Source: a virus (taxonomy: Duplodnaviria > Heunggongvirae > Uroviricota > Caudoviricetes). From it: a stretch of 21,290 nt of DNA. The position numbers and the translations under genes were made by a program. Shown one piece after another: positions 1,285 through 21,290 of the stretch. Within the stretch, counting starts at the first letter, position 1. Each line of letters starts with the position of its first letter. The DNA lies in the IMG/VR virus record IMGVR_UViG_2657244961_000005. One strand, 5' to 3'. The notes under the pieces were generated by a model, which saw only the letters and a list, made by a program, of their open reading frames with translations, was not told the origin of the DNA and did not search any database.

Positions 1285-1523
1285 AATTCACAGATGTTTT
1301 TTCTCATTCTGTGGTTTCCTTGGCGCTTTCTAGGTTTTTTCAGATAGTTACATTTTTTCAAAAGCATCCTGAGTTCGATCTTACTATCTATCTGTGGCCT
1401 ATTTCTGTCCCATATATGCCCCAAAAAACACCCCAACAGATAAGCAATCTTTTCATGGTGTTACGCGTAAAAACAATAACGGCTTGAAATTATTCAATAC
1501 ACTCTCGAAAGTGCATCAGCCAA

Positions 1524-1557
1524 CCGCAGAACGTTATTGCATACAACGTTTCTGCGG
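1524..1557. repeat. Imperfect 12-bp inverted repeat (ccgcagaacgtt ... aacgtt-t-ctgcgg) with 9-nt loop
   Basis: Read directly; no flanking T-run on either strand, so not an intrinsic terminator; possible protein-binding palindrome. Confidence 0.4.
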
Positions 1558-2000
1558 CATATCACGAAACGATTACTTAATGACTGGGACTTCAGACCAC
1601 TCAATATCCGGTACAATTATGTATCAACGCAGTTTAACAACACCCTATATTTAATCCAGAGTGCGAGCAACGTTGTCCCTTTCTCTTTTGCACTCTTAAA
1701 ATATACGATTACTTAAGTGAAGATGCTTGACGAATCGCCAAATAAAACATCTTCATCAGCATAAAAATCCATATATGATTGAAAATTTAGTCATTAATAC
1801 CATTCATATCTGAATACTAACCTAATATGCTTACTAACCGTGAGAAATCTTTTTTTTCGACTTAATCACTCGAAATAAACTTTCACTCAATTGAAAACAA
1901 TTAGCTACAATTATCATTGCAATATCAAATCAAACATAACAACTTGCATAAATTCTCATGGGATACAGCATCAGTTGTGCCAAACACATAAGGAATTGAA

Positions 2001-2198
2001 ATGGACGGAGAAAGCTTTAACTTTGATGACAATGATATTGAATTTATTGCTTCAATGTATGCATCATGTAAATTATCAGGAAGTATCGCCCCCATAATGC
2101 ATATAATGGTTAGCATTCCAAAAAATAAGAAAAAACAATTCTACGAACGAGTTGAGCATTATTGTAGTTTATATTCCAATAAAAACCCACCTTCTTAA
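2001..2198 (+). CDS. Hypothetical small protein (65 aa) in AT-rich region
   Basis: ATG at 2001 preceded by AAGGA (1990-1994) with 6-nt spacing; no recognisable family. Confidence 0.25.
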   Translation: MDGESFNFDDNDIEFIASMYASCKLSGSIAPIMHIMVSIPKNKKKQFYERVEHYCSLYSNKNPPS

Positions 2199-2330
2199 AT
2201 TCGCTGCATTCTAGTGGATTCCATTAAGAAAACAATGACATACACTCAAACACATCTTTTTTATCAACAGTGAATTTCAGTTCGGCCAGTTTTTACCAGC
2301 TATTATAAAAATAGCACCCATATAAAGTTT

Positions 2331-2447
2331 TTACCCCACAGGTACAGCTGGCCATTCGATAACCGCACTAAGGAAGTGCCAACACGACATCAGCAAGACC
2401 CGATATTTCTTCCATGCCGCCAGCAACGATGTTAAGGTTAAATTAAT
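2331..2447 (-). pseudogene. Remnant of the 3' end of a second tail-fibre assembly (tfa) gene
   Basis: Minus-strand translation ...[13 protein letters not shown]...IEWPVAPVG* parallels the C-terminus of the intact Tfa at 3019-3600 (...[13 protein letters not shown]...IEWPVAPIG*); nucleotide similarity visible between 2331-2440 and 3019-3130; upstream of the remnant the sequence becomes AT-rich non-coding. Confidence 0.6.
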
Positions 2448-2902
2448 TATAAAAAAATATATTATAATTCCATCTTCGCATTAAATTTTAACCTTTAATC
2501 TCCACACGGAACAAGTTGCATAGGTGACTATATTAAGAAAACTTATAACCACCAAAAAGATTTGCTTTGCAAGCAAAAACAGTGACCATTGACTCTAAGA
2601 AAATTCCGATCTATTGTTAGTGTCATCAAAGTTACTTAACAGTATTCCGAAATGAAAATACAAAGCAAGCTAATTGTCTTATTAAACATTATCATTGCAT
2701 TTATATTATTTGAGCTTTTAGCTCAAAAATTTGGTTTGAGTACATTATTTTAAAGCAAGATAAACAATATCGGGCACTCTAGTTTTTATAATTAACAATT
2801 AAACGCCCATAAAATGTTATTTACTTTTCTTCGCTATTGTCATATCTTAATATAGTGGCTTACGCCACTCTACTTTCATCATATTTTGTACGTTTATGTA
2901 CT

Positions 2903-2935
2903 CGCCATGAAGCTCTTTCATGGCGATTTTTTATT
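2903..2935 (+). terminator. Putative rho-independent terminator (plus strand)
   Basis: Perfect 9-bp stem cgccatgaa/ttcatggcg with 5-nt loop, followed by ATTTTTTATT. Confidence 0.4.
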
Positions 2936-3018
2936 CTTAATCCAAGAACATACTCCCTACCTATAGAAAAATCACTTTTTGAACAAAAGAATAACGTATT
3001 TAGGTAATCATTACGAAT

Positions 3019-3600
3019 TTACCCTATAGGTGCTACTGGCCATTCAATATCCGGTGCAGTTGTTGTATTAACACGGTTCAGCAACACCCGATACTTCTTC
3101 CAGGCTTCCAGCAACGAGATTTCTTCCTCCGTTGCAATTTCCAGATCTGCAGCATCCTGAAGCGGCGCAATATGCTCACTGGCTACCTGCATCAGGTTGT
3201 TTTTTGTTTCTTCCGCCTCCCGGATCCGGAACAGTTTTTCTGCTTCCGTATCCTTCACCCAGGCTGTGCCGTTCCACTTCTGATATTCCCCTTCCGGCGA
3301 TAACCAGGTGACATTTTCCGGTAACGAGCCAAGTTCAGAAATAAATAACGCGTCGCCGGAAGCCACGTCATAGACGGTTTTTCCCCGATGATCTTCAACG
3401 AGATGCCACGATGCCTCATCACTGTTGAAAACAGCCACAAAGCCAGCCGGAATATCTGGCGGTGCAATATCGGTACTGTTTGCTGGCAGACCTGTATGAG
3501 GCGGAATATATGCGTCACCTTCACCAATAAATTCATTAGTTCCGGCCAGCAGATTATAAATTTTTATGGTCCGTGGTTGTTCACTCATTCTGAATGCCAT
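3019..3600 (-). CDS. Tail fibre assembly protein (Tfa family)
   Basis: 193-aa ORF; translation [24 protein letters not shown]...EWPVAPIG matches the lambdoid Tfa chaperone family from memory; ATG overlaps stop of upstream tail-fibre ORF (TAATG). Confidence 0.9.
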
Positions 3601-6793: not shown

Positions 6794-7009
6794 TTACTCT
6801 CCCCGTGCAGCCTTACGCTTGTCTTCTTTAATCTTGAAATAAAGGTTTGTCAGGTACGTCAGCAGGCCAAATACCAGGCTACCCAGCACACCTATTGCTG
6901 CCCACTGTGAGGGCGTGACTTTATCGAGCAGCTGTAAAAACCAGTAGCCAGCACTGCCTGCGGAGGTGCCGTAGGCAATGCCTGTTGAAATTTTGTCCAT
7001 GGATTTCAT
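6794..7009 (-). CDS. Pinholin, phage 21 S-like (class II holin) with dual-start motif
   Basis: 71 aa [26 protein letters not shown]...KRKAARGE; two in-frame Met codons (7009 and 7000) as in S21 holin/antiholin; GGAGG 7 nt upstream. Confidence 0.85.
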
Positions 7010-7107
7010 AGCCTCACCTCCGCACGGAACGGATGGCATAGTTATTATGTGTAGGCTTCCAGACACATCAATCGGAGCCTTAATTGATATATATGCTGGA
7101 GACGATG

Positions 7108-7135
7108 CAATATAAAAAGCTCGCCGTAGCGAGCT
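7108..7135 (-). terminator. Putative rho-independent terminator (minus strand) between lipoprotein gene and holin
   Basis: 7-bp stem agctcgc/gcgagct with cgta loop; on the minus strand followed by TTTTTATATTG. Confidence 0.5.
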
Positions 7136-7260
7136 AATAAAATGTATTTCTCTGATATTATGTTTATTTGTATTAGCTCAGACTTGACATCACAGGTTTC
7201 GTATATAGAACATCATCAAATCTGTCAGTTTGCTATGAATGAGATATAGTAATTGAAGAG

Positions 7261-7656
7261 CTAACCTCGCATGTCAAAGCCAGATTTCTGAAAATCTCTG
7301 TAGACTTCCGGATTGTTGAAGGCCGGAAATTTGGCTTTATGAGCTGCGGACTTTATCGCTTCGCAATAGGCTTTATCACCGTTACTGGTAGATATTTTTA
7401 ACGCCGTGCCATCCTGAGAGAATTCCATATGCAACCTGCATTTTTTCCCTTTCCAGTTATGCGGCTCATCAAGTTTGGCATTAATTGCAGCTCTGATTCC
7501 CCGCGCTTGCGCCCCCCATTCATCCTGATCATCCCAGCGTCCTGAACTGCAACTACCTGTAGCAGTAGTTTTGTGGCAATCTGAAGGGTGTAAAGGTGTG
7601 CATCCCGCAACAAAACCGACCCAAAAAGTCAACATAACGATTTTCTTTAATCCCAC
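7261..7656 (-). CDS. Lipoprotein with TolA C-terminal-domain-like region (paralog 1)
   Basis: 131 aa; GTG start at 7656 with GAGGAG 6 nt upstream; signal peptide with lipobox VAGC; C-terminal ...KCRLHMEFSQDG...CEAIKSAAHKAKFPAFNNPEVYRDFQKSGFD aligns with paralog 2. Confidence 0.7.
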   Translation of the reverse strand: MGLKKIVMLTFWVGFVAGCTPLHPSDCHKTTATGSCSSGRWDDQDEWGAQARGIRAAINAKLDEPHNWKGKKCRLHMEFSQDGTALKISTSNGDKAYCEAIKSAAHKAKFPAFNNPEVYRDFQKSGFDMRG

Positions 7657-7806
7657 TTCTTGCTCCTCAATCCATTAAAATCTCAGCAATAGTAGTTGTT
7701 ACGTCCGCCACTGGCTCAGAGCTGACTATCCGCTAGATTTAGCTCAGTGCCGTAGTTGTGTCAGAACAAACCTAAGCCGAAACCGTTTATTACAAAACAA
7801 TAAATA

Positions 7807-8235
7807 TCAGGGTTTAAAATCCAGCACCCCATTTTGAAATACTTTATATACTTCCGGCGAAGGGGGGGCAGGTATATCAGCATTCTTTATCGCATTCATC
7901 GCTTCACGACATAAATCGAGGTCTCCACTTTCTCTTTTAACCTCCAGTAGAAGGCCATTCGGGGCCATATGCATTCTCAGTGTACACTCTTTTCCTGAAT
8001 ACTTACTCGCATCCCCGAACTGTTTTTCGATGGCGCTCTTGATTTGATGGGCATACAGACGGATATCCTCACTAACATCAGAAGTACGTTCAGATGAACT
8101 CACATACTGTGTCTCTATTGCTTTATCGGAGTAATATGATGTACGGTCATGATAATTTGTCGATACAGCATCAGTGCACCCGATAATAATCCCACTAATA
8201 ATCAACGTAAGAATTGATGCGCTACGAAAACCCAT
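7807..8235 (-). CDS. Lipoprotein with TolA domain III-like C-terminus (paralog 2)
   Basis: 142 aa; ATG at 8235 with GAGGA about 5 nt upstream; lipobox IIGC; C-terminus YAHQIKSAIEKQFGDASKYSGKECTLRMHMAPNGLLLEVKRESGDLDLCREAMNAIKNADIPAPPSPEVYKVFQNGVLDFKP closely parallels the E. coli TolA C-terminal domain as I recall it (...YAGQIKSAIESKFYDASSYAGKTCTLRIKLAPDGMLLDIKPEGGDPALCQAALAAAKLAKIPKPPSQAVYEVFKNAPLDFKP). Confidence 0.75.
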   Translation of the reverse strand: MGFRSASILTLIISGIIIGCTDAVSTNYHDRTSYYSDKAIETQYVSSSERTSDVSEDIRLYAHQIKSAIEKQFGDASKYSGKECTLRMHMAPNGLLLEVKRESGDLDLCREAMNAIKNADIPAPPSPEVYKVFQNGVLDFKP

Positions 8236-8264
8236 TTTTCCTCACATATGTCATATAGTAAAGG

Positions 8265-8294
8265 ATTATATATACCGTTGTTTTGGACGCTCAA
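8265..8294 (-). promoter_or_regulatory. Candidate sigma70 promoter for lipoprotein gene 7807-8235
   Basis: On minus strand: -35 TTGAGC (8294-8289), 18-bp spacer, -10 TATAAT (8270-8265), about 29 nt upstream of the ATG. Confidence 0.35.
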
Positions 8295-8768
8295 ACAGCG
8301 AATCAGATCAAATAAAACGCACATTTGTTAACATTTACACAAAGTCTGCGTGGGATATTCTGAAAGAATATCCATAATGTGGAGAGAATCTATTGAAGTG
8401 CATGGTGCCGGGGGCCTCCCGGTGAATTCAGTACCAGCACCTGAATCCACGATTATCCCATATACCTACTCGCTGATTGCCCCTCCGCACAGGGGGATTC
8501 ACCATGCCAGTTTCTTTTAACAAACTCCCCGCAAACCAGAGAACAGTCAACCGCCTGAATTGTGAAGTATTTAAAAATTTCTCCCGCTAACTGATACCCG
8601 GCTAACAGTCTGGCGTTTTCTTTTTCAGCAACGGGAAAGCAACAACTACCACACCCGCCACCAGCACACCGTCAGCCAGCACTGACATTATCCGGCTGCT
8701 GCAATGCCATTCACAAAAACAGTAAGCAATCACTTTTTACCGTAACAGGTGATAATCCAGATATGTAT

Positions 8769-9122
8769 CTACCCCAGATGAGTAATCCGAAGTTCATCCA
8801 TACCACAGGTCCTGGCTATTCTGTTGTACTCCTGAACAAGAGCAAATAATTCTGAATTAGCAACCATGAACTCATCGCAAACCCTCTGTATAGCATCACT
8901 ATTCAGAATAATAACGTCTCTTCCCGAAAGACGATCAGGAGCACAGAACAAAACTGTCAAACGGCTGAAGGCCTTTGCTCGTGCTGCATTGACTATATCA
9001 ATACGCTGCCTAAGGATGAAACACCCCGACGCCTCATCAATATTCACTCTACCCACACCATATGAATGATAAATATTTAATGCTGAAAAAACCATTAGAC
9101 CGTATAACAAACACTCAATCAA
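8769..9122 (-). CDS. Hypothetical protein (108-117 aa), uncertain start
   Basis: ORF begins with TTG at 9122; first ATG at 9095 lacks a clear SD; no family recognised; lies just downstream of the phage tRNA cluster. Confidence 0.3.
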   Translation of the reverse strand: MIECLLYGLMVFSALNIYHSYGVGRVNIDEASGCFILRQRIDIVNAARAKAFSRLTVLFCAPDRLSGRDVIILNSDAIQRVCDEFMVANSELFALVQEYNRIARTCGMDELRITHLG

Positions 9123-9232: not shown

Positions 9233-9309
9233 TGGCGCGCTGTACTGGATTCGAACCAGTGACCGATTGCTTAGAAGGCAATTGCTCTGTCCGGCTGAGC
9301 TAACAACGC
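9233..9309 (-). tRNA. tRNA-Arg (anticodon UCU), phage-encoded
   Basis: 77-nt cloverleaf folded by hand: acceptor GCGTTGT/ACAGCGC, D-arm GCTC..GAGC, anticodon stem ATTGC/GCAAT with loop CTTCTAA, T-arm ACTGG-TTCGAAT-CCAGT, discriminator G, encoded CCA. Confidence 0.85.
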
Positions 9310-9322
9310 TGAATACCGATAA

Positions 9323-9410
9323 TGGACCGCCATCGGGGACCCGCCCCCCCCCCCCCGCACCAACAACCCTGTTATCGTGTCGTCTGCTCTTCCTGATAAG
9401 CTCATGGCGG
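9323..9410 (-). pseudogene. Degenerate tRNA-like element containing a 13-nt homopolymer
   Basis: Perfect 7-bp acceptor-stem complementarity (CCGCCAT/ATGGCGG) followed by T-CCA; D-arm GCTT/GAGC with conserved A14 and GG18-19; but no canonical anticodon arm and a T-arm replaced by a G-run. Confidence 0.35.
9344..9356. repeat. Homopolymeric tract C13 (G13 on minus strand)
   Basis: Read directly from sequence. Confidence 0.9.
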
Positions 9411-9417
9411 TTTGTGA

Positions 9418-9493
9418 TGGTGGCCCTTGCTGGATTTGAACCAGCGACCTGGCGATTATGAGTCGCTCGCTCTCACCACTGAGCTAAAGGACC
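9418..9493 (-). tRNA. tRNA with CAU anticodon (Met or lysidine-Ile2 type; resembles phage ileZ-type tRNA)
   Basis: 76-nt cloverleaf: acceptor GGTCCTT/AAGGGCC, D-arm GCTCAGTGGTGAGAGC, anticodon loop CTCATAA, T-arm GCTGG-TTCAAAT-CCAGC, discriminator A, encoded CCA. Confidence 0.85.
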
Positions 9494-12629: not shown

Positions 12630-12785
12630 TTACTCCTCAGGTTCGTAAGCTGTGAAGACAGCGACCTCCGTCTGGCCGGTTCGGAGTCGTACCTCGCAGA
12701 GGTCTTTCCTCGTTACCAGTGCCGTCACTATGACGGTTAAACAGATGACGATCAGGGCGATTAACATCGCCTTTTGCTGCTTCAT
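12630..12785 (-). CDS. hokD: Hok-family type I toxin (HokD/RelF-like)
   Basis: 51 aa MKQQKAMLIALIVICLTVIVTALVTRKDLCEVRLRTGQTEVAVFTAYEPEE, essentially identical to the HokD sequence as I recall it; an in-frame upstream extension to 12842 (70 codons) covers the expected mok/leader region. Confidence 0.9.
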   Translation of the reverse strand: MKQQKAMLIALIVICLTVIVTALVTRKDLCEVRLRTGQTEVAVFTAYEPEE

Positions 12786-13000
12786 AGCCTGCTTCTCCTT
12801 GCCTTTCGGCACGTAAGAGGCTAACCTACATGTGTCTAGCATGAAATTGGCCTCAGATTAATGTTAAGCGTCTTGCAGGACGCGTAATGTTAACTGGGGC
12901 TTTTCTCTATCTGCCTTTGGTGTTCATGCCTGAGGCAGATAGCCTCAAGCACCCGCAGCAATTCTACTTAACTCACGTCACCTCGCCAATATAAAATCAA

Positions 13001-13291
13001 TCAGAAAGGCGATCCGTAAGAACAACAGCAAGACAATAAATTGCCATTACAGCCGCAATAGCTAGCGCACATTTGAGAACCAGCACGACAACCTCCTGTA
13101 TTGGACGTACACCAGTCCTGATAAATATGAGGCTGTCTCATCATTGATTCAATATAACTATTGGGTATAGTTTCTGTGATTTTGTTCTGTAGAAATGGAA
13201 CACAACAACCAGTCACCACCAGCACTTCTTTAAATACGCCAAGTCCGACGCAAGCTAACCTTCTAGTCCGCTTTGAGCGATCTGTAGACAT
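13001..13291 (-). CDS. Doubtful ORF (96 aa, Cys-rich C-terminus)
   Basis: Only an open frame; no RBS or family support; may be non-coding hok leader/upstream region. Confidence 0.2.
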   Translation of the reverse strand: MSTDRSKRTRRLACVGLGVFKEVLVVTGCCVPFLQNKITETIPNSYIESMMRQPHIYQDWCTSNTGGCRAGSQMCASYCGCNGNLLSCCCSYGSPF

Positions 13292-13402
13292 TGCTAGCAG
13301 CCTTCTGTGTGAATTCTCAGGGAGCAGGTCGGCATAGCATCACGTTGAGGCTCTTACCCTACTTGTTGACACCAACCCTAACTCCACAGACTGATTCATA
13401 AA

Positions 13403-14404
13403 TTAGTAATCTGCGTATTTCGCACTTTTCAGAAATGCTTTCATATTTTCATTAGGTCGCTCAATTTCGAAGTTACTTCCATATAACTCTTGTAATTTTG
13501 GCCATAACTTACTTAATAACCCTCTCCTGCGATAAAATGGATGTATCCAAACGGTAGATAGGTACGGAGAATTTGCATTTGAATTGTTTATTGTGACCAG
13601 CCCAACTAAACATTGTCGATAACCACTATTATCCATTGATTGTATTTCTTCGACGAATGGATACGCGATTACATCAGTCCAACCATGATCGGTTGTATCC
13701 CATTGCATTCCGTCATGACATTCCTTCGACTGATAGCGGCGTAAAGCTACACACGCGAGCTTTTGCCAATCTGGAGAATTAATTGTGATCTCTTCATCGT
13801 ATGACGCGCCTATTGGAGCGGGTATTGGTCTGATTAATCCAGCATGGCATTCATCATAGAACTTCATGTTTCCCTCAGAAACGTTGTGTACGTTGGGTTG
13901 CTCCATGTGTGCGCCATTCAAAAATAGCTCTGATAGTAGTGTATCTACACTGTAATCTTTATTGATTATTGTCGGCTTAGAGTTTTTCTTATTAAGGCCG
14001 CGAGTAACGATTTTTTGATCAATGTTAACAACATGGAATAATCCGTCGGGGAGACTAGCGAACCACGATGGGGCATCGGACCAGAATAGCATGCCTTTTG
14101 TACTTCTTAAGAGTTTAATTAAGTTAATACAAGCTTCTTCACTAGTCTTGCCGTTGATGCGAAGTATGTTAGGACTAAAGTAATATTCATCCATATCAGG
14201 GAATGCAGCTTCGCAAAACTCCTGTACATAATTTAGCACCTGGATTCTACAGAGATCATCATAGCTGGTAATAACTAAGGGGATATCTTCATTACTATTA
14301 TGATTATCAATAATGCAATCTATAGCGAGACTTACTGCTTTGCGTATCACTTCAGTTGAATCTAACGACTCTAAAAATTTTGTCTTTCGTGTGCGAATAT
14401 CCAT
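13403..14404 (-). CDS. Cassette gene B: unknown N-terminal domain plus C-terminal GNAT-like acetyltransferase fold (inferred)
   Basis: 333 aa; ATG at 14404, 15 nt after the stop of gene A; markedly AT-rich (about 25-35% GC in sampled 60-nt stretches versus about 50% in flanking phage genes); C-terminal ...YLSTVWIHPFYRRRGLLSKL...NENMKAFLKSAKY resembles GNAT motif A and the C-terminal helix. Confidence 0.7.
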   Translation of the reverse strand: MDIRTRKTKFLESLDSTEVIRKAVSLAIDCIIDNHNSNEDIPLVITSYDDLCRIQVLNYVQEFCEAAFPDMDEYYFSPNILRINGKTSEEACINLIKLLRSTKGMLFWSDAPSWFASLPDGLFHVVNIDQKIVTRGLNKKNSKPTIINKDYSVDTLLSELFLNGAHMEQPNVHNVSEGNMKFYDECHAGLIRPIPAPIGASYDEEITINSPDWQKLACVALRRYQSKECHDGMQWDTTDHGWTDVIAYPFVEEIQSMDNSGYRQCLVGLVTINNSNANSPYLSTVWIHPFYRRRGLLSKLWPKLQELYGSNFEIERPNENMKAFLKSAKYADY

Positions 14405-14419
14405 GTATGACCTGCGCTA

Positions 14420-15442
14420 TTAAAATTCATGAATGAACGGTTTGTCATCTGGTTGCAAAATGGTGGTTTTATTCGTTGCTACATTTAAACTGTTGTAGAG
14501 CATAATTGCCAGGTTCGATGCATTTTCAATCAGCGTTTCAAGATCCTGGTCTGTAATCACTACGAGGTTCCCTTCTTTATCCTTTCCACCACGATGCACT
14601 AAGTGATTTCGATTGAGGGTTGCCAATTCAATAGCTTCTATCGGACAGTCTTTTTGTACTTTTATATCGAATGTAGCTTCATAGCGGTCGATTACCTTTT
14701 TAGTGCTATGCCAGCTTGCACTGATCAAGTGTTCCTTGATTGACCTGATTAGCTCTCCCCTAATTTTCTCGATGGGTTCACCCTTGAAAGGCAACGCAGC
14801 AATATCTTTGCTTACTTTAAATTCAGTCTTACCTTTTTCTATACAATTGGCTATGTAGACATCATCTTTCTCTATAGAATTAATGAATAGCTCAACATAA
14901 AGCGTTTCCAAAGCTGTAATAACATTCGTGTAGAGCAAACTAAGCAAGTGGTTTTTTTGCTGTTGTTCAGTTTTATCTTTTGCAAGTTTTTTTATTTTAT
15001 CGATATTATCAATGAATTTTAAATACGGATTACCGGAAGACGTTACAGCGTCGTAGATATCATCATCGTACCAATCATCTATATTATTTGAGTTTCCAGA
15101 CCAGTCAAAACATTGTGTTTGTAATTCATCTACTAATTCCTCAATATACTCAGATTTAACATATTGACCGAAGATGGATTGTAGTTCTTCGCTCGCATCA
15201 TACGGCCCGCCATATATGTAAGCATAGCCACCTTCTCTACTTTCATACGGACAAGCATTTGCCGGATCTTCAAAGTTTTCAAAGAACCAGTTTTTCATTA
15301 CTTCGAGTTGATCTTTTTTGCTTATGTATTTTAAAGATTTTAGTGGAACTTTCTTTCCATTAACCTCGAAAACAATTTTCACGATGTAACGCTCCCTTGT
15401 ATCAATTGCGCAACTATTATACCACAGCGAAATACAGGGCAT
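14420..15442 (-). CDS. Cassette gene A: unknown protein with possible C-terminal HEPN-like Rx4H motif (inferred)
   Basis: 340 aa from ATG at 15442, which is preceded by a near-consensus SD AAGGAGG with 6-nt spacing (the ORF-track extension to 15532 is not supported); AT-rich; motif NRNHLVHRGG (R-x4-H) within a helical-looking C-terminal region. Confidence 0.7.
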   Translation of the reverse strand: MPCISLWYNSCAIDTRERYIVKIVFEVNGKKVPLKSLKYISKKDQLEVMKNWFFENFEDPANACPYESREGGYAYIYGGPYDASEELQSIFGQYVKSEYIEELVDELQTQCFDWSGNSNNIDDWYDDDIYDAVTSSGNPYLKFIDNIDKIKKLAKDKTEQQQKNHLLSLLYTNVITALETLYVELFINSIEKDDVYIANCIEKGKTEFKVSKDIAALPFKGEPIEKIRGELIRSIKEHLISASWHSTKKVIDRYEATFDIKVQKDCPIEAIELATLNRNHLVHRGGKDKEGNLVVITDQDLETLIENASNLAIMLYNSLNVATNKTTILQPDDKPFIHEF

Positions 15443-15573
15443 AACCTGCCTCCTTAAACTAACATACCATGAGCCAGCAATGTCCGCTATTGGCACAAAG
15501 CGGACAACCACGCTAGCTCTACCCTGTGCCACAAAATGTCAATTTGCATCTGAACTAATGCACTTTAATCTCG

Positions 15574-19994: not shown

Positions 19995-21290
19995 ATGAGA
20001 GAAGTTGAAATGAAATATCCGACAGGCGTGGAAAACCATGGAGGGAAATTACGTATCTGGTTTGTTTATAAAGGCGTAAGAGTCAGGGAAAATCTGGGGG
20101 TTCCTGACACAGCAAAAAACAGGCGCGTTGCAGGTGAACTACGCGCCTCTGTTTGTTACGCAATAAAAACTGGTGTTTTCGACTATGCAAAACAGTTTCC
20201 CTCCTCACGCAATCTGGAAAAATTTGGTGAGGCCCGACAAGATTTAACCATAAAAGAACTGGCTGAAAAATTTCTGGCACTGAAAGAAACTGAAGTCGCC
20301 AAAACATCACTCAACACATACCGTGCCGTCATCAAAAATATCCTGAGCATAATCGGTGAAAAAAATCTTGCCTCATCGATTAATAAAGAAAAATTACTGG
20401 AGGTTCGTAAAGAGTTACTGACTGGATACCAGATCCCCAAAAGTAACTATATTGTTACACAACCAGGGAGATCGGCTGTAACTGTAAATAATTACATGAC
20501 AAATCTTAACGCCGTGTTCCAGTTTGGTGTTGATAACGGTTACCTGGCAGATAATCCGTTTAAGGGGATCTCGCCATTAAAGGAATCAAGAACCATTCCG
20601 GATCCTCTTTCGCGGGAAGAATTTATCCGTCTTATCGATGCGTGCAGAAATCAGCAAGCAAAAAATTTATGGTGTGTTTCTGTTTATACTGGCGTTCGCC
20701 CTGGTGAGCTGTGTGCACTTGGATGGGAGGACATAGATCTGAAAAATGGAACAATGATGATCAGGAGAAATTTAGCAAAAGACCGTTTCACGGTACCAAA
20801 AACACAGGCGGGAACCAATCGGGTCATTCATCTTATTAAGCCAGCAATCGACGCTCTCCGGAGTCAGATGACATTAACGAGACTGAGCAAAGAGCATATC
20901 ATTGATGTTCACCTCAGAGAGTATGGCAGAACAGAAAAACATAAATGCACCTTTGTTTTTCAACCTGAAGTGTCAGCGAGAGTAAAAAATTATGGTGACC
21001 ATTTTACCGTTGACTCAATAAGGCAGATGTGGGACGCAGCGATAAAACGTGCCGGACTCCGCCATCGAAAATCATATCAGTCGAGACATACTTATGCCTG
21101 CTGGTCGCTGACAGCTGGTGCTAACCCGGCATTTATAGCAAACCAGATGGGCCATGCAGATGCGCAAATGGTATTTCAGGTATACGGAAAATGGATGTCT
21201 GAAAACAATAATGCACAGGTAGCTTTGTTAAATACACAGTTAAGCGAGTTTGCCCCAACCATGCCCCATAACGAAGCAATGAAAAATTAA
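19995..21290 (+). CDS. Tyrosine-type site-specific integrase
   Basis: 431 aa (start may be the ATG at 20010); conserved R...HxxR...Y catalytic region (SRHTYACW, MGHADAQMVFQVYGKW); terminal gene of the element. Confidence 0.9.
   Translation: MREVEMKYPTGVENHGGKLRIWFVYKGVRVRENLGVPDTAKNRRVAGELRASVCYAIKTGVFDYAKQFPSSRNLEKFGEARQDLTIKELAEKFLALKETEVAKTSLNTYRAVIKNILSIIGEKNLASSINKEKLLEVRKELLTGYQIPKSNYIVTQPGRSAVTVNNYMTNLNAVFQFGVDNGYLADNPFKGISPLKESRTIPDPLSREEFIRLIDACRNQQAKNLWCVSVYTGVRPGELCALGWEDIDLKNGTMMIRRNLAKDRFTVPKTQAGTNRVIHLIKPAIDALRSQMTLTRLSKEHIIDVHLREYGRTEKHKCTFVFQPEVSARVKNYGDHFTVDSIRQMWDAAIKRAGLRHRKSYQSRHTYACWSLTAGANPAFIANQMGHADAQMVFQVYGKWMSENNNAQVALLNTQLSEFAPTMPHNEAMKN

Follow-up and report, generated by a model that had tools for sequence, protein, structure and literature searches.

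Does a pair of AT-rich genes without an assigned function, lodged in a lambdoid prophage, protect its host against phages, and if so, has the system been described before? The question is raised by positions 13292-15573 of the IMG/VR virus record IMGVR_UViG_2657244961_000005, a stretch of 21,290 nucleotides of Caudoviricetes DNA that is referred to here as the window. A sequence-only reading had proposed that the two genes in this region, here named A and B, are a candidate defence module that is not a described system, in which an acetyltransferase could regulate or neutralize a HEPN-type RNase as in HEPN/MNT pairs. We conclude that the locus is very probably the already published anti-phage system DS-33, carried by a Qin-like defective lambdoid prophage of Escherichia coli, in which gene A acts and gene B is a separable passenger.

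Correspondence with the DS-33 system

The region contains two co-directional open reading frames (ORFs) with an intergenic gap of 15 nt. Both of the tightly coupled genes proposed earlier were confirmed:

14420..15382, minus strand: gene A, the DS-33 HEPN protein (320 aa, GTG start), based on the ORF, the PGAP call on a 100%-identical locus, identity to the published protein, and alignment of the start with homologues

13403..14404, minus strand: gene B (333 aa, WP_023277548.1), based on the ORF call and the annotation of the identical locus

The same pair is described as DS-33 in the DefensePredictor paper (DeWeirdt, Mahoney and Laub, Science 2026, PMC13092281). Its supplement lists the transcription unit NZ_QOWT01000046.1:6922-8901, which encodes WP_014639476.1 and WP_000354965.1 and was cloned as pCV1-GNAT under the working name ‘GNAT’. 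The two genes, at 6922-7884 and 7900-8901, have the same order, strand, and 15-nt spacer as the pair in the window. Protein A is identical to WP_014639476.1 at 320 of 320 residues, apart from the V/M convention for the GTG start. Protein B is identical to WP_000354965.1 at 330 of 333 residues; the window allele carries I41, P289, and Y330 and the tested allele T41, L289, and H330 (I41T, P289L, Y330H). With an identical gene A and a three-residue variant of gene B in print, the claim that the pair is not a described system does not hold: its defence role has been established experimentally by others.

The plaque data are reported as -log10 efficiency of plating in two replicates (Table S7, PMC13092281). 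Wild-type DS-33 protects by 2-6 logs against T7 (3.8/2.6), T3 (3.3/2.4), Bas67 (4.0/2.0), and Bas26 (5.0/5.9), with values of 0.8/0.1 for T5. The ΔGNAT strain is viable and gives 4.8/4.3 for T7, 3.3/3.3 for T3, 4.0/3.3 for Bas67, 5.0/4.9 for Bas26, and 1.7/0.5 for T5. In the ΔHEPN strain every value for these five phages lies between -0.5 and 0.5, and in the R258A mutant every value is below 0.8. The HEPN gene and its residue R258 are therefore necessary for defence, and sufficient when gene B is deleted. These published genetics show that gene A is the defence effector and that gene B is dispensable in the tested allele. DefensePredictor assigns log-odds of 9.45 to A and 1.08 to B, with 4 as its threshold (PMC13092281).

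As a result, the proposal of a defence module was borne out by published plaque protection, and that of horizontal mobility by the occurrence of the cassette in unrelated contexts, as described below. The proposed control of the HEPN protein by the acetyltransferase fared otherwise: deletion of the GNAT gene leaves viable cells with equal or slightly stronger defence, and loss of the HEPN gene or of R258 abolishes it. PADLOC (2023) returned only chance-level matches for the two proteins and has no model for either. A megablast search against 50,697 phage records matched a 95-nt flank only, with the cassette in no record. Beyond the papers cited here, no further description of the pair or of a lambdoid hok-adjacent hotspot was found in the literature searched.

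The region is 100% identical, and the whole window 99.99% identical, to an annotated locus of E. coli O177:H21. This counterpart is a Qin-like defective prophage sited between ydfJ and rspB, in which both proteins are labelled only ‘hypothetical protein’ by PGAP. The comparison made earlier with the place of the relBE/dic accessory genes in K-12 Qin is roughly right, as relBE adjoins hokD in K-12. The AT-rich island is also real, with a GC content of 0.388 over 13292-15573 (0.361 in gene A, 0.388 in gene B), whereas the flanks have 0.491 and 0.514. The range of 25-35% given for it was nevertheless overstated; single 100-nt windows span 0.26-0.50.

Gene A ends at 14420 and has candidate starts at 15532, 15442, and 15382. 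The start had been placed at ATG 15442, for a protein of 340 aa, on the strength of a Shine-Dalgarno sequence. This AAGGAGG-6 nt-ATG arrangement exists and is perfect (15440-15453), 60 nt upstream of GTG 15382, but GTG 15382 is the most likely start of gene A, and ATG 15442 is probably not used. This alignment-based choice follows from several observations. The Shine-Dalgarno sequence is degraded in cassettes of 90-95% identity, and the ATG itself is gone in one relative (L026). A candidate -10 element, TGgTATAAT, sits downstream of ATG 15442. An 84%-identical homologue (L029) has an ATG exactly at the position that matches GTG 15382, and distant homologues have their N-termini there too. RefSeq/PGAP likewise calls the 320-aa form, under the accession WP_014639476.1. 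The candidate promoter element, read from the sequence and kept in the 90-95% identical cassettes, is as follows:

15416..15424, minus strand: candidate extended -10 element TGgTATAAT of the putative A-B operon

A sigma-70 scan of the cassette that required a -35 element found no -35/-10 pair upstream of gene A and did not report TGgTATAAT. Sigma-70 and terminator scans of the cassette gave counts not above shuffled expectation, with no terminator after gene B.

Elsewhere in the window, a second AT-rich stretch (1400-3000, GC 0.33) lies between a ydfJ remnant and tfaQ and holds one annotated 65-aa hypothetical gene. It is followed by a match to the Rfam IS009 RNA at 3059-3257. There are also hokD with the sok antisense RNA (Rfam, 120 bits), a match to the STnc100 small RNA, and two prophage tRNA genes, within 12630-12954, 8346-8536, and 9233-9493. 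The tRNAs are an Arg-TCT and a CAT-anticodon tRNA, the latter called Met by ARAGORN and Ile by PGAP.

Domains, proposed action and competing explanations

The assignment of gene A to the HEPN superfamily proved right, and its C-terminal domain is probably of the RiboL-PSP type. The R-x4-H motif noted earlier in a helical context (NRNHLVHRGG) is real, and R258, H263, and R264 are invariant in all 72 homologues aligned from the 122 relatives found. The AlphaFold2 models of proteins A and B have predicted local distance difference test (pLDDT) scores of 87 and 90. Protein A has the four-helix up-and-down HEPN fold. HEPN_RES_NTD1 (PF18870) matches 66 of the 72 homologues at E<=0.01. HEPN_RiboL-PSP (PF18735) matches 37 of the 72, the best at E 7e-11. 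The HEPN/RES-NTD1 domain was defined in Anantharaman 2013. The features of gene A are as follows:

14594..14611, minus strand: catalytic R-x4-H motif, R258-N-H-L-V-H263 (invariant in 72 homologues; the published R258A mutant loses defence)

15107..15307, minus strand: N-terminal HEPN/RES-NTD1 domain, residues 26-92, presumed sensor or regulatory module (Pfam PF18870)

14459..14965, minus strand: C-terminal helical HEPN domain, approximately residues 140-308

The GNAT-like motif reported at the C-terminus of gene B is likewise genuine, and the protein is rightly predicted to be a GNAT-fold acetyltransferase with an orphan N-terminal domain of its own:

13820..14404, minus strand: orphan alpha/beta N-terminal domain, residues 1-195 (AlphaFold2 mean pLDDT 90)

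13406..13792, minus strand: GNAT acetyltransferase domain, approximately residues 205-333

13538..13540, minus strand: codon of P289 (invariant in the family; L in the experimentally tested allele)

Of 66 relatives found, 52 were used for residue comparison, and H288, P289, and R292 are invariant in all 52. The acetyl-CoA motif Q/R-x-x-G-x-G/A reads R292-R-R-G295-L-L297 in gene B, with L in place of the final G/A; R292 is conserved throughout the 52 and G295 in 40 of them. The domain has the alpha/beta GNAT fold, and most of the structures nearest to it are protein acetyltransferases. Gene B scores 20.0 bits against Pfam Acetyltransf_1, for which the threshold is 20.7. No PDB sequence match was found for the N-terminal 195 residues. 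A profile of this domain gave 24 matches only among 1.84 billion representative proteins; the full-length ones are all of about 330 aa, like B as a whole, and the others fragments. A weak match to a 998-aa protein was regarded as spurious.

How DS-33 acts can be proposed from the HEPN family. Protein A would be kept inactive in uninfected cells, and its N-terminal HEPN/RES-NTD1 domain may sense or transduce an infection cue. The C-terminal HEPN domains would then dimerize to form a composite Rx4H RNase site and cleave RNA, as metal-independent HEPN RNases do; phage production would cease, with abortive infection as the probable route. HEPN defence proteins usually attack tRNA anticodon loops or mRNA. 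By analogy with these proteins, RNA cleavage leading to abortive infection would most likely be the action of DS-33. The pair is probably transcribed as one unit, and its mobile 2.24-kb cassette, flanked by two palindromic sites, lies in a hotspot with many other defence systems.

The role of gene B bears on the alternatives, and its distribution is informative here. In a scan of 99 loci with profile hidden Markov models (HMMs) for both proteins, A and B were neighbours solely in loci whose A shares at least 84% identity with the window copy; these come from E. coli, Serratia grimesii, and metagenome contigs. Homologues of A at 72% identity or less all lack B, in Enterobacterales loci and in more than 50 distant metagenomic loci. 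Altogether, A occurs without B in at least 60 loci and B without A in 11. The solo B homologues are found in marine gammaproteobacteria (Shewanella, Idiomarina, Marinomonas, Neptunicella, and others) in unrelated contexts. No conserved alternative partner of solo A or solo B was seen in these loci; the one gene that recurs beside them, at 6 loci, encodes an integrase-like protein of about 400 aa. In Rahnella contaminans (L010, 5816-7075), the cassette lacks the equivalent of window positions 14484-15405, and with it almost the whole of gene A, and keeps the R site, the upstream/promoter region, and an intact gene B. The scan thus rules out obligate co-occurrence. On these comparisons, A and B are two separable genes carried together by one enterobacterial cassette lineage, which does not fit an obligate toxin-neutralizer pair.

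The alternative that survives best, though we consider it unlikely, is that two independent single-gene systems share the cassette. Gene B would then be a defence or counter-counter-defence factor in its own right, for example through acetylation of a phage protein, and would act on phages beyond the tested panel. That B persists by itself, conserved and intact, as an accessory gene in differing contexts is in line with this, as are the Rahnella copy that retains the promoter and B after loss of A, the resemblance of the fold to protein acetyltransferases, and the location in a defence hotspot. Nevertheless, B alone, as the P289L allele in the ΔHEPN strain, gave no protection against T7, T5, T3, Bas67, or Bas26, and its log-odds of 1.08 and lack of a PADLOC match argue in the same direction.

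Less probable still is a HEPN toxin with a GNAT neutralizer or regulator, in which the acetyltransferase would restrain the RNase as an essential partner in the manner of HEPN/MNT. The tight operon is compatible with such control, and the pair is kept as a unit in cassettes of 83-97% identity from several genera. Deletion of the GNAT gene slightly raises protection against T7 and T5, and the tested allele may be hypomorphic through P289L. Against it, the deletion strains are viable with normal defence, A homologues at 72% identity or below never occur with B or with any conserved neighbour, B occurs solo in marine gammaproteobacteria, and the pair contains no MNT or other antitoxin-like gene. 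The idea that the genes are functionless, as inert cargo of the prophage or as AT-rich DNA with ORFs called in error, could draw on their ‘hypothetical protein’ annotations and the lack of PADLOC matches, but is already refuted by the published plaque assays with a point-mutant control, by the confident AlphaFold2 models, and by conserved families with invariant catalytic residues.

The reading of the locus as DS-33, with A as the effector and B as a passenger, has several points against it. Window protein A falls below the Pfam cut-offs for both of its domains, with 22.2 bits (E 1.9e-4) against a gathering score of 27.4 for PF18870 and no match to PF18735 at E<=1. No RNA target, trigger, or abortive-infection phenotype is reported for DS-33, and the main text of the paper does not discuss the system (PMC13092281). 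Deletion of the GNAT gene gives 1-1.7 logs more protection against T7 (PMC13092281), so some interplay between A and B is possible. Finally, the dispensability of GNAT holds for an allele that may be impaired, because P289L affects an invariant residue: position 289 is Pro in all 52 homologues, beside the acetyl-CoA loop (HP-x-x-R-x-x-G), and Leu in the tested protein. We searched 5,426 complete E. coli genomes for the exact 43-mer that contains this codon: its CCA (Pro) form occurs in 209 and its CTA (Leu) form in none, CTA being the one Leu codon that the search covered. On these sequence comparisons the tested GNAT allele is rare and possibly impaired. The natural P289 allele may modulate the HEPN effector, an effect that the P289L construct could not reveal; gene B would at most mildly dampen gene A.

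Cassette edges and the shared slot

The pair is bounded by two palindromic sites, which coincide with the limits of homology between the window and other copies of the cassette:

15482..15505, unstranded: R site, a 24-nt palindrome, GTCCGCTAT-TGGCAC-AAAGCGGAC, at the upstream cassette edge (homology to six contexts ends here)

13266..13289, unstranded: L site, a 24-nt imperfect palindrome, GTCCGCTTT-GAGCGA-TCTGTAGAC, at the downstream cassette edge

The generalized pattern is GTCCGCNNN-GAGCGA/TGGCAC-NNNGCGGAC, in a 9-6-9 layout. On the plus strand, to which the site sequences refer, L and R are mutually inverted; when their inner flanks are included, the repeat extends to 46 nt, at 72% complementarity. 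The A-B cassette occurs in six unrelated settings: a CP4-57-like island of Serratia beside a CbtA/CbeA-type pair, a Rahnella island, and intergenic chromosomal sites on four metagenome contigs. Homology to the window stops within 1-5 nt of 15505 in all six. At the other edge it stops at 13265-13270 in five of the six, and at 13329 in the Rahnella copy. No target-site duplications were seen at the cassette ends in these six contexts.

The same two sites bracket other cargoes in the slot between hokD and DUF977. Phage Tritos and E. coli LF82 carry an FRG-domain protein there, phage Evi an acetyltransferase with a regulator, E. coli C31 a hypothetical protein, and E. coli A20 a 250-nt non-coding remnant. 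Sites were also found at loci L009, L010, L024-L027, L099-L101, L103, and L104 onwards. Exact scans of IMG/VR with one 15-mer per site gave at least 120 matches each, and 207 loci were examined among the matches listed, to which the following counts refer. They contain at least 85 L-to-R bracketed segments of 0.45-5.8 kb with at least 52 cargo clusters. The longest ORFs of at least 37 clusters match PADLOC models for PD-T7-1, PD-T7-5, NsnA, PD-T4-2_A, a retron-type reverse transcriptase, a CBASS cyclase, ThsB, PycC, DarG, and Tmn. These ORFs also match the Pfam families GmrSD_N, SMODS, TIR_2, RES, Macro, and NYN. Because many cargoes match known defence models, we regard the slot as a defence hotspot. 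The 6-nt centres of the sites are nearly invariant (GTGCCA in 142 and GAGCGA in 116 of 338 sites). Arm positions 7-9 are variable, with the palindrome often kept (TAT/ATA, TCC/GGA). There are also tandem arrays, with an L site 15-27 nt beyond an R site and a semi-conserved TAACTGAGCTGAAG in the linker.

Two further observations concern the sites. In L025 (5878-8165), a chromosomal copy of the cassette, complementary changes affect the outermost bases of the two sites, with GGCGGC... / ...GCCGCC for GTCCGC... / ...GCGGAC. The K-12 Qin prophage (L102, 4982-5005) has a single degenerate R-type site, GGCTGCTCC-TGGCAC-AAAGCGGAC, near relB/ydfV; no L-type site was detected there.

The edge palindromes were ruled out as attC or dif sites by their sequence, and as intrinsic terminators by the lack of a T-run after them. 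They are possible core sites for a tyrosine recombinase in cassette exchange, though homologous recombination at conserved palindromes and a REP-like (repetitive extragenic palindromic) element are possible too. No recombinase was identified for them, and the window encodes no integrase apart from the prophage Int (~20009-21289). We suggest, tentatively, that they may be the core sites of an undescribed site-specific cassette-exchange system that shuffles defence genes among the lambdoid-prophage hotspot, integrative islands, and chromosomal sites. With a heterospecific, inverted pair of sites, the cargo could be swapped without inversion or loss. The literature searched contained no description of the sites, which speaks weakly for their novelty. 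Should a recombinase act on them, they would represent a new route for immune-gene exchange in Enterobacterales and provide a simple sequence handle for mining defence systems. The value of the DS-33 pair itself is one of confirmation, as the sequence-only reading had picked a real defence system with the HEPN and GNAT calls right. The features worth following are the cassette-boundary sites and the atypical GNAT allele that was tested.

Comparison with known systems

Apart from DS-33, the described systems close to the pair include PD-T4-2 (Vassallo et al. 2022), which works in its native E. coli strain. Its B protein is annotated as RiboL-PSP-HEPN and belongs by remote homology to the same HEPN subfamily as gene A. 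PD-T4-2 is also the best known-defence match of gene A in the DefensePredictor supplement, with values of 96.1 and 0.55 that we read as HHblits probability and coverage fraction (PMC13092281). It differs from DS-33 in its N-terminal domain and partner gene, and no PADLOC PD-T4-2 model matches A or B at E<=1. The aRES defence proteins, which are detected by the combination of PF18870 and PF00808 (bioRxiv 10.64898/2026.01.28.702374), have the N-terminal HEPN/RES-NTD1 domain in common with gene A, which suggests a shared sensor or regulatory module. Their effector is a RES NADase, whereas that of gene A is HEPN.

In its layout, gene A resembles PrrC/RloC, ApeA, HepS, DARNA, and AbiD/F, which combine a sensor domain and a HEPN Rx4-6H RNase in a single protein. 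DARNA, a nuclease of tRNA anticodon loops, gives protection against T7, T3, and T5. These nucleases show no sequence relation to gene A beyond the HEPN core, and the domain order differs; the HEPN domain of DARNA is N-terminal. HepT/MNT pairs differ in that the window pair lacks an MNT nucleotidyltransferase, its partner is a dispensable GNAT, and protein A has 320 aa with an extra N-terminal domain. An identity as a HEPN-MNT toxin-antitoxin was rejected, since B has no nucleotidyltransferase domain and the ΔGNAT strain is viable and defends. A GNAT-RHH (ribbon-helix-helix) toxin-antitoxin of the TacT/AtaT type, with a toxin of about 170 aa and an RHH/DUF1778 partner, was rejected as well: B has 333 aa with an extra domain, and no RHH gene is adjacent.

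The cassette edges also differ from known sites. With the form GTCCGCnnn-6-nnnGCGGAC, they are unlike attC R boxes and dif, they comprise two types with distinct 6-nt centres, and they have no associated integrase. An integron gene cassette was rejected by sequence comparison, made without an attC model, as the edges read GTCCGC...GCGGAC rather than RYYYAAC / GTTRRRY and the sole integrase of the window is the prophage Int. The resemblance lies in organization: integron cassettes and Acinetobacter pdif modules also consist of gene cassettes between short palindromic sites, arranged in tandem arrays, and integron cassettes also carry defence genes. In pdif modules the sites on the two sides are mutually inverted, as they are at the window cassette. 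Exchange at such edges would parallel recombinase-mediated cassette exchange in a natural setting, with a logic akin to that of integrons and pdif modules.

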